Shown in pieces: positions 47,510-51,382 of a stretch of DNA of 64,000 nt. The stretch lies in assembly GCF_963921235.1 (NCBI RefSeq), contig NC_086108.1, positions 38,380,001-38,444,000 on the forward strand, written 5' to 3'. The DNA is from Mobula hypostoma. Lineage: Eukaryota. Under the pieces are notes generated by a model that ran no database searches, had not been told where the DNA came from, and saw only the letters and a list, made by a program, of their open reading frames with translations. Position 1 is the first letter of the stretch. The number at the start of each line of letters is the position of its first letter. Both the position numbers and the translations under genes were made by a program.

Positions 47510-50500
47510 TTGTTTAGTAGGTTGAGGAGAGAGCTTAGATCATTGAGACAGAGGTGGAAGGTAGCAAGTGAGGGTGACAAGCCAGGGCTTGCTGATCTCC
47601 GAGAACATTTTCAAATAAAGTTAGCATCACTCCGTCGTACAAAGTCACAACGTGAAAAAAGAAAGAAGAAAGAGAAAGCAAGAAAGTTAATTCTTTGAGA
47701 ACCCTCACAAGTTTATAAAGAAACTGTTTGAACAAAGTAGGAGCAGGCAGCTTATCTCTCAACAAGAACTTGAGGATCACCTGGCAAGCACTTACTCTAA
47801 CGAACAGCAGGAGGCTCCTTTGCTTGACATTTCAGGGCTTGTGAAGCCTACCAAGCCAGGAGTGAAGTTCGATCTGTCAGAACTCAAACTGGCAGAAGTC
47901 GAACAGTTCATCAGAAAGGCAAGGTCAGGCTCAGTGCCAGGACCTAATGGAGTGCCGTATAAGGTATTCAAGAAGTGTGAAGAGCTGAGGAAATACTTGT
48001 GGAGATTGTTAAAGGTGGTGTGGAGACAAGATGTTGTTTCTTTGTCATGGAGTGAGGCTGAAGGAGTATACATCCCAAAGGAAGAGAATTCTACTACATT
48101 GAATCAGTTCTGACCAATTTCACTCCTGAATGGAGAGGAGAAGATTATGTTTGGCATTCTGGCAGAAAGAGTATCTTCATTTGTGATACAGAATGGATTA
48201 GTAAATACGTCTGTGCAGAAAGCAGGAGTACCAGGCTTCCCAGGATGCCTTGAACATTCTAGTATGATATGGCATACCATCCAGGAGTCAAAAAGGTTGA
48301 GAAGAAATCTGGCTGTAGTTTGGCTTGATCTGGCAAATGCATATGTTTCTGTCCCCCATGTCCTGATTGAGTTTGCGATGAAATTCCTATGGATTCCTGC
48401 TAAGGTGAGGAACTTTGTTATGCAGTACTACAACGATTTCTGGATGAGGTTTTCCAATCAGCAGTTTACAACTAGGTGGCAGAGCTTGGATGGTGGAATC
48501 CCAATGGGATGTGCGATTTCACCCATCCTTTTTGTGTTAGCCATGGAGGTCATTGTGAGGGCTGCAGAATCAGTGGGACCAGGTGTCGCACTTGATGGCA
48601 GAGAGGAGTTACCACCAATATGAGCGTTCATGGCTGATCTTACCCTTTTGGGTCGCAGCACGGAGGCAGTAGAAAATGTACTATCTAGACTCGAGGAGCT
48701 AATGGATTGGGGAAGAATGAAGTTCAAGACCAAGAAGTCAAGGAGCCTTGTTCTTAGGAGAGGAAAGCTCCATTTCACCCTTTGTGGAGAGGAGATTCCA
48801 TCCATTCAGGACCAACCAGTTAAGAGCCTCAGGCGATGGTACACAGAGGAGCTGAGAGACACCAAGAGGGTTCAAGAGACAGGAGAACAGATCAGCAGAG
48901 GTCTGACGTCTGTTGACAAGTGTGGCTTGCCTGGCAAGTTGAAGTTGTGGTGCTTGCAATACGGACTGATGCCATGGATAATGTGGCCACTAACTGTCTA
49001 TGAAGTGTCAATGTCCCATGTTGAGGCAATGGAACAGAAGATCAACAAGTATGTGAAGAAGTGGCTTGGAGTACTGAGCAGCCTCACCAATGTTGCAATC
49101 CACTGTAGCCAGACAAAGCTTACCATCCCAGTGCAATCCCTTGTTGAGGAGGTCAAGGTAGCCAAGTAAGATCATTCTTGATGCTTCGAGACTCAAAAGA
49201 TTCTGTCATCAAGAACACCCAGCCGGATGTGCAGTCAGGCAGGAAGTGGTCAGCCCGTGTAGCACAGTCCAGATTGAAGCACAAGGAGACAGTTGGGGCT
49301 ATCCAGCTAGGCTGCCAGGGACTTGGATGGACAACCCACAAGTGATGGTCATCTTCTACAGGTAAGGAACGTCGTGATCTTGTAACACAAGAAATACGAG
49401 AGGTAGAAGAGGAGAACAGGTTAACTAAAACAGCTGGCCTGGCCAAACAAGGGGCTTGGACCCGGTGGGAAAGTGTTGAACAATGACATCTATCTTGGAA
49501 TGTTCTGTGGCAGATGGAACCGCTCTGCAATTCTTTTCTATGCAGAGCAGCATACGATCTGCTCCCAACACCTGCCAACCTCAGCACCTGGTATGAAGAT
49601 AAGACAGACAGGTGTGCTGCTTGTGGCGAGAAGGGAACACTTCAACATATTTTGAGTGCATGCAGAGTCAATCTTTCCAGCGGCATGTACACTTGGAGAC
49701 ATAACAACGTTCTCAAAGTTGTAACAGAAGCGGCTGAGCAGAGAGTACTGCAGCACAACTTATCTCATGCCCCATGCTGCACAGAACATCGCATATCATT
49801 TGTGAAAGAAGACTCCAAGTCAAGGGTGTACAGCGCAGGCTCACGATCAAGCATACTTTCTTCAGCCAATGATTGGTGTGTCAAGGCTGACCTGGACGGG
49901 AAAGGCAGTTTCCCGGAGCAAATAGCTTTCACAGCTTTGCGTCCAGATATAATCGTATGGTCTGACACCAGTAGAGAAGTGGTTATTGGTGAACTCACAG
50001 TCCCCTGGGAAGACAACATAGATGAAGCCCATGAGCGCAAGTTAACCAAGTATGCAGAATTAAGATCAGAGTGCAGAGACAGGGTGGAAGGTCTCATGTT
50101 ATCCATTCAAAGTAGGCTGCTGTGGGTTTATTGTATTCACTCTCCAGAAGCGGCTGCATGACCTTGGCTTCACTAGAAGAGAGATCAAGTCAACCAGCAG
50201 GGCTGTAGCTGAGGTAGCAGAGAAAGGATCAGCATGGGTATGGACCAAGTATGTCCAGAGGGGCAGATAGTCAGACAGTGTATACATCTTTTGCAAACCC
50301 TTCAGTAGTTGCATAGTCACCTGAAGAGCAGACTATCTGTTGGATGGAAGCGACCAACAACTCTGATAGAGGCAGATGCCAAGTTTTTAAGCTCACCAGT
50401 GGGAGGTGGTGCTTTAGTACTGCTGGTCCACCACCTTGAGAGAGTCTTGATCATAAGCGGGCCGAAACTCCTGAAGACAGGTGGCAGATCAACTGATGAT

Positions 50501-50570
50501 CCCAATGGTGATAGCACAGGACAGTTAACATCTTAGTCCACGTGTATTCTGTAACTGTTAACTTCATTAA
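47510..50570 (+). mobile_element. Hero-clade (R2 group, restriction-like endonuclease) non-LTR retrotransposon, 5' truncated, mildly decayed
   Basis: Single broken ORF: RT (PGPNGVPYKV, QKAGVPGFPGCLEH, WLDLANAY, GIPMGCAISP, FMADLT), CCHC knuckle CAACGEKGTLQHILSAC, RHNNVL, RLE motif LRPDIIVWS..VVIGELTVPWEDNIDEAHERKLTKY; stop at 50268-50270 followed by a ~300-nt 3' UTR. Confidence 0.88.
50431..50503 (+). ncRNA. Candidate permuted (pseudoknotted) hammerhead-like RNA with kink-turn in the Hero 3' UTR
   Basis: CCACCT-T-GA-GAGAGTC-TTGATC-ATAAGC-GGGCC-GAAA-CTCCT-GAA-GA-C-AGGTGG-CA-GATCAA-CTGATGA-TCCC; see finding. Confidence 0.6.
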
Positions 50571-50579
50571 GTCTAAGTG

Positions 50580-50808
50580 ACGCAGACAAAATGCTGGAGG
50601 AACTCAGCAGGCCAGGCAGCATCCATGGAAAAGAGTACAGTCAACGTTTCGGGCCAAGACACTTCGGCAGGACCCTTTGACAGGCCTCAGCCTGAAACAT
50701 CGACCGAACTTTTTTTTTCCATAGATGTTGCCTGGCCTGCTGAGTTCCTCCAGCATTTTGTGTGCATTGCTTGGATTTCCAGCATCTGCAGATTTCCCCT
50801 TGTTTGTT
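50580..50808. repeat. Palindromic Penelope-terminus-derived element with degenerate hammerhead cores
   Basis: Inverted arms aaaatgctggaggaactcagcaggccaggcagcatc / gatgttgcctggcctgctgagttcctccagcatttt; minus GTC-CTGCCGA-AGTGTCTTGGCCC-GAAACGTT-GAC. Confidence 0.8.
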
Positions 50809-50894
50809 TTTAAAGTCAAAGTGATAATGTTTTCAGGAACATCAAAGCAGCCCATTGGCACTACAACAGCAATGAGCTTGGGATGTTGGTGTGT

Positions 50895-51382
50895 GTAGGA
50901 GGTTCACGAGGATGATTCCAGAAATGAAGGGGTTCAAATATGAGGAGTCTCTGGCAGCTTTGGTCCTGTATTCACTGGAAGTTCGAAGAGTGTGAGGAGA
51001 CCTCATTGAAACCTACCAAATGTTGAAAGGACCAGATAGACTGGATATGGAGAGGATGCTTCCTATTAAGGGAGTATCCAGAACTAGAAGGCACAGCCTC
51101 AAAATTCAGGGGTGACCTTTTAGGGGAGGCAAGGAGGACTTCTTTTAGCTAGAGAGTGGTGAATATGTGGAATGCTCTACCACAGACTTTGGTGGAGGCC
51201 AAGTTCATAGGTATATTTAAGTCAGAAGTTGATAGTTTCCTGATCGGTCAGGGCGTCAACAGATATGGCGAGAAGGCAGGTGTATATGGTTGAGAGGGAT
51301 CCTGGATCAGCCATGATGAAATGGCAGAGCAGACTCAATGGGCTAAATGGCGTAATTCCGCCATGTCTAATCACCTTATGAA
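50895..51382 (+). mobile_element. CR1 3' fragment
   Basis: aggaggttcacgaggatgattccag ... ggatcagccatgatgaaatggcagagcagactcaatgggctaaatggc. Confidence 0.8.

Follow-up and report, generated by a model that had tools for sequence, protein, structure and literature searches.

Does a kink-turn (k-turn) beyond the stop codon of a Hero-like retrotransposon act as the hinge of a ribozyme, and what would such a ribozyme do when the element is copied? The question is raised by a stretch of 64,000 nucleotides (nt) from Mobula hypostoma (RefSeq assembly GCF_963921235.1, contig NC_086108.1, positions 38,380,001 to 38,444,000, forward strand), here called the window, which carries a broken copy of such an element. 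We found that the k-turn pattern is real and conserved, that it lies in a new hammerhead variant with a testable role in element copying, and that the 5' terminal repeats of genomic copies duplicate the 3' end of the element itself. Our preferred reading, held at a probability of roughly 0.6, is that a k-turn-hinged cage in the 3' untranslated region (UTR) of Hero-like elements would fold in Mg2+ and would cut the RNA and re-join it into a circular template.

The original prediction, made from the letters of the window, had read a consensus k-turn into stem III of a hammerhead-like motif, and the letters are as it gave them: the non-bulged strand (50431-50445) runs CCACCU, U, GA, GAGAGU, the bulged strand (50467-50484) runs ACUCCU, GAA, GA, C, AGGUGG, and CA follows at 50485-50486. 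The k-turn, with its canonical (C) and non-canonical (NC) helices, is made up as follows.

50431..50439, + strand: non-bulged strand, with the NC helix at 50431-50436, 3n at 50437 and G2n-A1n at 50438-50439 (sequence and conservation).
50467..50484, + strand: bulged strand, with the C helix at 50467-50472, the GAA bulge at 50473-50475 and G1b-A2b at 50476-50477.
50478 and 50479-50484, + strand: remainder of the bulged strand, 3b and the NC helix respectively (NC covariation 121/125 vs null 75).

The C-A mismatch and the C-U pair noted in that prediction are present in the window copy and are not features of its family. Position 50441 is G in 28 of 30 family copies, normally giving C-G, and 50437 is C in 25 of 30, normally giving C-C; both majority letters were confirmed by contigs of four sequencing runs. 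(Such contigs cannot show RNA ends or levels, and a step in depth near 50468 coincides with loose ends and was not used; among the sequencing runs listed as carrying the sequence, none was of RNA.) Thus, both irregularities are decay of one copy, the C-U change being CpG decay. The 30 copies were fetched from 1624 first-look candidate copies of the 3' UTR in the M. hypostoma genome, 40 of which were scored; relative to them, the window copy is unusual at 50418, 50427, 50437, 50441 and 50505. Copies within one family decay neutrally, so their agreement is no evidence of selection, and distant families are needed. The k-turn region lies 3' of the stop codon (50268-50270), so codon constraint does not explain the pattern. 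We also observed that A2b sits within AGACA (50475-50479), which we take to be an N6-methyladenosine consensus and which would apply to families with 3b = C. The effect of methylation on k-turns depends on position, according to the parts of the literature consulted.

Distant families were obtained by aligning the C-terminal protein region with 16 homologues and then scanning metagenome contigs for relatives. The best 80 of 375 confirmed relatives gave 79 loci with 36-48% protein identity, chosen by protein homology only, and 59 of the 79 make up the parsed fold set. Clustering at 80% identity left 38 clusters (median pair identity 52%), or 42 clusters and 62 loci once seven loci had been added. 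Stem III ends in a strict k-turn in 25 of 38 clusters, whereas 2000 shuffles gave 1.1 on average and never more than 5; with the added loci the counts are 27/42 clusters and 42/62 loci, and at 70% clustering 14/28. GA/GA ranks first among the 256 dinucleotide combinations, the runner-up being the same motif shifted by one, and a 3-nt bulge gives 25 clusters where bulges of 1, 2, 4 and 5 nt give 1, 3, 0 and 4. The window and 27 of 42 clusters therefore hold a standard k-turn, with a 3-nt bulge followed by G1b-A1n and A2b-G2n, and with covarying C and NC helices on both sides. Both the consensus and its conservation in other Hero families, on which the original prediction had staked itself, were upheld.

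Seven further clusters (L078, L093, L099, L109, L125, L126 and L127), judged by eye, are variants that keep A1n and A2b and change G2n or G1b. The helix is broken at the k-turn position in 42/42 clusters. On a protein tree, made by a quick search only, the k-turn appears on most branches and the window family adjoins bulge-only clades; five rows marked 'noMotif' on it were later found to have the motif further downstream. The M. hypostoma genome itself yielded a second Hero-like family with a distant query, and a third turned up later. Altogether we regard the k-turn as very probably a real structural hinge. Separately, two or more further Hero-like families of M. hypostoma share the fold, k-turn included (L153-L182; L193, L204, L210, L215).

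We then considered the folding class. The Hero motif shares with standard k-turns of the Kt-7 and SAM-I type (PMC8191799, PMC4382518; statements on cited papers refer to the parts of each that were at hand) the 3-nt bulge, the tandem G-A/A-G pairs and the C and NC helices; like them it has mostly C-G at -1b/-1n (16/25) and a bias of 3b-3n to A-G and 3b = C. Unlike them, it sits inside a hammerhead and is replaced by plain bulges in some families. By the published rules, Mg2+ suffices to fold a k-turn in which 3b is C or 3n is G, but not one with a Watson-Crick 3b-3n pair; most k-turns fold upon L7Ae binding, and 97% of the protein-dependent U4 k-turns lie outside the ion-folding class (PMC8191799, PMC4382518). 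The Hero 3b-3n pair is permissive for Mg2+ in 21 of 27 clusters (A-G 9, C-C 4, C-U 3, U-G 3, C-A 2) and outside the ion-folding class in six (C-G 3, U-U 2, A-C 1). Against an expectation of 6/16 this gives P = 2e-5, which is optimistic since the clusters share ancestry; at 70% clustering the count is 12/14. Kinked geometry in Mg2+ without protein is thus likely, as predicted from the 3b-3n rules only.

The original prediction had suggested that folding is controlled by protein. That part was not sustained: at 3b-3n the clusters resemble SAM-I riboswitch k-turns and not U4 or box C/D, and protein-controlled folding is therefore not favoured. A protein-switched ribozyme, whose k-turn needs 15.5K/SNU13 or another protein of the L7Ae family, would fit the dependence of most k-turns on L7Ae and the six clusters outside the ion-folding class. 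It would also fit L3 being U in 15 of 25 clusters, as L7Ae-family proteins prefer U at this position. We nevertheless consider it very unlikely, because the 21 ion-folding clusters include the window family (C-C) and because the plain-bulge families keep the ribozyme core. 15.5K may still bind the motif.

The hammerhead fold around the k-turn was found with a loose descriptor for the block order site - GAAA - CUGANGA, which matched 59 of 79 loci on the coding strand; the opposite strand gave one match, and 20 shuffles gave 0-2. Of the 20 other loci, 13 hold at most 151 nt after the protein match. The parts of the fold in the window, from 5' to 3', are listed below.

50393..50404, + strand: 5' strand of helix P0, pairing with 50500-50511 over 12 base pairs (fold; covariation 295/333 vs null 237).
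50405..50424, + strand: hairpin B, which with P0 forms a four-way junction between A9 and G10.1.
50425..50429, + strand: 5' strand of stem II, with G10.1 at 50425, pairing with 50459-50463 (185/190 vs null 146).
50440..50446, + strand: 3' strand of stem III (the C helix) and the GUC triplet (148/152 vs null 99).
50447..50452, + strand: 5' strand of stem I, pairing with 50487-50492 (182/190 vs null 102).
50459..50467, + strand: 3' strand of stem II and the GAAA box, with G12 at 50464 (GAAA in 60/62 parsed loci).
50485..50499, + strand: 2-nt linker, 3' strand of stem I (50487-50492) and CUGAUGA box (50493-50499; CUGANGA in 59/62).
50500..50511, + strand: 3' strand of P0, starting directly after A9 (fold and covariation).

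By analogy with other hammerheads, the cut is predicted to fall between 50446 and 50447. The core letters are kept throughout (CUGANGA 59/62, GAAA 60/62 and NUH 62/62 loci), although the descriptor itself required these words. The A15.1-U16.1 pair (U-A) is present in 38/38 clusters, the G10.1-C11.1 pair is G-C in 33/38 with three more G-U, and hairpin B takes up the whole gap in 28/37. In a MAFFT alignment not fitted to the fold, 91.4% of cells paired vs 63.1%, with 152 double-sided changes vs 41; none of 500 shuffles reached the observed values, slid controls gave 37-49%, and stems I, II, III and NC were confirmed. Per-helix permutation tests agree. The GUC triplet of the window is GUU in 15 of 62 loci, and GUU cuts more slowly.

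Around the core, stems I, II and III all covary, as they should in a hammerhead fold. The blocks run in the order S, G, C, with 11-17 nt from H17 to G12 in the 25 k-turn clusters, as in type SGC. It departs from that type in stem II: the letters 3' of CUGANGA show no pairing with the strand that precedes GAAA (105 vs null 104), and the stem II strand is supplied from upstream, 20-21 nt before the predicted cut. Classic types I-III do not describe it, given the S-G-C order and the lack of an Rfam match in the window; on seven loci Rfam returned two chance-level matches only. The fold is thus a type-SGC-ordered hammerhead with stem II drawn from upstream and A9/G10.1 split by a four-way junction. 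We think it probable that the ribozyme is active. The upstream stem II strand (50425-50429) and the four-way junction splitting the CUGAUGA block were absent from the original prediction, as were the 1-nt link between the NC helix and stem II and the 8 of 42 clusters that lack a k-turn. Overall its k-turn and conservation stood, its hinge is likely, and its protein control is not supported.

It is very improbable that the k-turn match is chance, or that a 9-base-pair hairpin (50403-50411 with 50429-50437) is the real fold. This hairpin is perfect in typical copies of the family, and a single copy gives little statistical support. The hairpin is, however, found in the window family only (1/38 clusters; 236 vs null 228), and in a typical copy the nested fold that includes it is 8.6 kcal/mol less stable than P0, B, NC and III together (-36.1 vs -44.7), whereas the k-turn is conserved far above chance.

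Some other candidates were dropped. A decayed downstream stem II was sought in the M. hypostoma genome with a pattern for the canonical CUGAUGAG stem II, which gave only 2 matches, both of them ordinary copies of the window family. Two other loose-descriptor matches in the window (43977 and 24608) look like chance matches to A/T-rich sequence. Separately, loci L102 and L135 have a second CUGAGGA just 5' of hairpin B. Translation of one named lancelet protein continues into a tail that resembles the UTR, indirectly suggesting that a named animal has the motif.

The geometry of the fold bears on the hinge. The NC helix is tied by linkers of near-fixed length, about 1 nt to stem II and 1-3 nt to stem I; G10.1 to 3n measures 11-13 nt in 24/24 clusters and 3b to C3 measures 14-15 nt in 22/25. 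In a rough model with 14 and 9 helical steps of 2.8 Å, the ends of the helix axes lie 30 Å apart at 50 degrees, 53 Å at 110 degrees and 64 Å when straight. From the short linkers and this rough geometry we infer that only a sharp kink lets the linkers close, and to that extent the proposal that a hinge brings the far end of stem III to stem I was supported. By kinking, the helix probably brings the far ends of stems I, II and III together in a closed cage. In such a cage the k-turn would bend stem III back as the hinge, with the catalytic junction below and, above it, a three-way junction (I-II-NC) that the NC helix would form in place of the usual loop I-loop II contact.

The closest published fold is the type-SGC hammerhead HRIMA-1 (Eckert et al. 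2023, PMC10085705), which has the same block order, core letters and short stem I-stem II linker. Unlike it, the Hero fold has the 5' strand of stem II upstream, P0 and hairpin B separate A9 from G10.1, and the NC-helix junction stands where the published type has a stem I-stem II helix. Published type SGC comes from metatranscriptomes only and not from genomes of known organisms, whereas the Hero fold is in an animal genome. Eckert et al. leave open how a short linker lets stem III reach stem I with its far end, and 'kink' and 'k-turn' occur 0 times in the parts of their text and supplement at hand. A precedent for the inserted A9/G10.1 junction is possible, as a 2026 paper mentions earlier reports of hammerhead variants with extra helices. 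The literature covered gave no report of a hammerhead with a k-turn in a retrotransposon, non-LTR (long terminal repeat) or stem III context. Within the accessible parts of the papers found (including PMC7650587, PMC9004415 and PMC13580325; subscription journals and Repbase reports lay outside the scope), there was likewise no report of a Hero ribozyme, hammerhead or head-to-tail arrangement. On circles and tandems two reviews were found, and on A9/G10.1 nothing about the Hero fold, in the sections available (including PMC11300833).

We next turn to the genomic copies. The start motif of the element has 84 matches in the M. hypostoma genome (control 1), and 78 were fetched, 68 of the window family and 10 of another family or due to chance. 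Upstream of the 68 starts stands the element's own 3' end, with at least 7 nt in 64, at least 30 nt in 55 and at least 570 nt in 12, followed by a near-constant, T-rich spacer without poly(A). The upstream repeat matches the own 3' end of its copy at 417/518 variant cells (80.5% vs null 62.9%; null maximum 74.2% in 5000 permutations), the own 3' end having been found for 41 of 58 copies. On a circular map the 3' ends of 30/41 copies lie 6-9 nt before the start motif. For the third M. hypostoma family, 4/5 starts are preceded by its own 3' UTR. Several metagenome contigs also run from the UTR motif straight into the start motif (22 coding-strand matches, 0 opposite); these junctions occur at 10 of 42 loci with enough downstream sequence, distant families included. 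Thus, the 5' terminal repeats reproduce the element's own 3' end, in partial head-to-tail arrangement and holding a hammerhead, as in Penelope-like elements.

Genomic copies span the predicted cut, which falls about 110 nt from the 3' end of the element. Twenty-eight upstream repeats run across the cut with the junction itself free of indels; short deletions lie a few letters further upstream in two, and the triplet of one carries two substitutions. The other 40 end in the first 117 nt, a single one lying within 3 nt of the cut; no upstream repeat stops at 115-167 nt from the start. The 3' cleavage product as a separate template was rejected: 0 insertions start exactly at the cut vs 2 and 5 at control offsets, raw counts given without the overall number of copies that the patterns capture. 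The end points of upstream repeats also form small groups close to the GAAA and CUGAUGA boxes (L198, L201, L219, L221 and L207, L217, L218, L242), in numbers too small to call.

With the hammerhead 110 nt inside the 3' end, a cut RNA would not be fully copied unless it is re-joined or the cut is jumped. In the cycle that we propose, a more-than-unit copy would be transcribed and both ribozymes would cut, leaving a unit-length RNA whose two ends would rebuild the cage and be ligated into a circle. Target-primed reverse transcription by the element protein would begin at a set position inside the RNA, about 7 nt upstream of the 5' leader, and would continue round the circle, sometimes for a second lap, so that more-than-unit copies are regenerated. 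The 3'-end repeats, the seamless crossing of the cut and the shared variants fit reverse transcription of a ribozyme-made circle. A circular template is modestly favoured; the same cut-ligate-circle model was proposed earlier for Penelope elements (PMC4209133, PMC6765202) and retrozymes (PMC6765202). We give even odds to the fuller proposition that Hero elements are long interspersed nuclear element (LINE)-type elements replicating through a circle made by their own ribozyme, in which a cage opened at A9/G10.1 and clamped by the k-turn would favour ligation, palindromic loops would pair two RNAs, and the hammerhead topology would not be covered by the six published permutations.

Several observations weigh against the k-turn-hinged, circle-forming ribozyme. 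Eight of 42 clusters have no k-turn, with an opposite-strand bulge of 3-6 nt in five (L068, L088, L089, L133, L145), a plain bulge in two (L080, L138) and an extra arm in one (L117), so the bend, and not the k-turn, is the universal feature. Seven loci with at least 235 nt of 3' sequence show no motif, and kinship among clusters makes the p-values overstate independence. In the window family -1b/-1n is U-G, which the consulted parts of the folding rules do not cover, and the geometry model is a back-of-envelope estimate. A published assumption allows at most 1-2 nt at A9/G10.1 (PMC10085705); the inserted helix pair contradicts it, and catalysis could be slower or absent. As for the repeats, 17/58 copies were dropped for want of a usable own 3' end, and nine variant columns represent one deletion, so the 518 cells are not independent. 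Target-site duplications are not in excess (4/30 vs 2.5 expected), leaving single-event insertion of a more-than-unit copy unsupported. Finally, in 7/28 long overlaps 17-24 of 40 other copies are closer than the own 3' end.

These seven repeats appear to have no relation to the 3' end of their own copy, so that a different template supplied some of the joins. Such repeats would be explained if the ribozyme cuts and the template stays linear, the cage holding the ends while the reverse transcriptase jumps the cut within one RNA or a dimer. A 6-nt palindrome at the loop centre of hairpin B in 18/37 clusters vs 3.6 expected (five different palindromes; loci including L070, L073, L074, L097, L100, L123 and L139) suggests kissing-loop dimers, and R2 reverse transcriptase reportedly copies non-continuous templates. 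We still hold a jump on a linear template unlikely, as the junction has no indel in 28/28 crossing copies, stops do not pile up at the cut, no insertion starts there, and the window family lacks the palindrome.

Distinctly unlikely, in our judgement, is a hammerhead-derived scaffold that cuts slowly or not at all and is recognised by the element protein, with tandems arising by linear read-through of more-than-unit source copies or by insertion beside older copies. Every genomic copy spans the site intact, the CUGANGA block is split and 15 of 62 loci carry the slower GUU triplet, all as a scaffold would have it; variant concordance, too, would follow if two similar repeats were already present in source copies. 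However, the catalytic letters and G10.1-C11.1 persist between families that share 36-48% protein identity and whose stems have changed; inherited repeats, unless made anew, would be worn away by 5' truncation; and self-targeting must hit 64 of 68 full-length copies though most copies insert elsewhere.

The circular reading has parallels in other elements. Penelope-like elements carry hammerheads in terminal repeats (PMC4209133, PMC6765202) and belong to another clade, with a GIY-YIG nuclease and a telomerase-like reverse transcriptase; their ribozymes are minimal type I and act as dimers, with no k-turn or permuted cage described in the parts of those papers at hand. Retrozymes (PMC6765202) likewise have hammerhead-bearing repeats and are thought to replicate via circular RNA. 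They are non-coding, LTR-like and dependent on other elements, whereas Hero encodes its own reverse transcriptase and endonuclease. R2 elements belong to the same protein superfamily as Hero and process their transcript with a self-cleaving ribozyme; theirs is hepatitis delta virus-like and at the 5' end, whereas the Hero hammerhead lies 110 nt inside the 3' end.

If our reading is true, a non-circularly permuted hammerhead would occur in animal genomes, where the parts consulted of the paper describing the class report none (PMC10085705), and the k-turn hinge would answer its question of how stem III reaches stem I. The cut-ligate-circle model would cover a relative of R2 in addition to Penelope elements and retrozymes, and would account for the fragment of their own 3' end with which full-length copies start. 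The genomic signature is easy to count, which makes the long-proposed circular intermediate directly testable. The 120-nt RNA, with hammerhead core, four-way junction and k-turn, is a ready structural target, and the findings bear on RNA template design for the R2-type enzyme family.

The element in the window comprises the following parts besides those above.

47514..50556, + strand: copy of a Hero-like non-LTR retrotransposon, 5'-truncated and broken (blastn against other genomic copies).
48114..48623, + strand: reverse transcriptase fragment (Pfam RVT_1, E 1.2e-9).
49487..50074, + strand: zinc knuckle and restriction-like endonuclease, presumably of the PD..ELTVPWE type (Pfam zf-RVT below cut-off; 115 homologues).
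50512..50556, + strand: 3' tail without poly(A), corresponding to the family 3' ends mapped before the start motif.

A full unit measures about 3.8 kb (self-matches of loci L326-L328). The reverse transcriptase frame, represented by the corresponding frame of locus L063, has R2 proteins as its top solved-structure matches. Reverse transcriptase, zinc knuckle and restriction-like endonuclease share one frame, together with an N-terminal zinc finger, which is the domain set of the Hero clade. Named homologues of the zinc knuckle and endonuclease region come from lancelet, sea urchin, fish and molluscs, matching the Hero host range of sea urchin, lancelet and fish and agreeing with PMC9004415. 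The name Hero, taken over from the original prediction, is thus putative, a fit by domain content and host range. Four window frames gave no GIY-YIG match, unlike Penelope-like elements.

Among viral contigs no relative of the element was found. Prokaryote genome contigs gave seven short matches (L146-L152), fragments of a Hero-like family that are probably contamination. In the UTR segment that separates the stop codon from the ribozyme motif, sequences resembling tRNA, with words similar to the A box and B box, were seen by eye in some loci (L082, L102, L103, L108, L135), of which ARAGORN calls none. A second stem-loop is predicted right after the stop codon in a typical copy (window 50280-50335). 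In all families inspected, the 5' leader after the start motif holds 4-5 short hairpins with GAAAG-type purine-rich loops and UGAC-type spacers, without an Rfam match (for example L326:1109-1250, L100:157-290, L073, L086 and L135). The element is followed in the window by a short repeat (50580-50800) and a LINE-like fragment (50870-51280), which we take to be a short interspersed nuclear element and a CR1-like piece, respectively; blastn found related pieces of both elsewhere.

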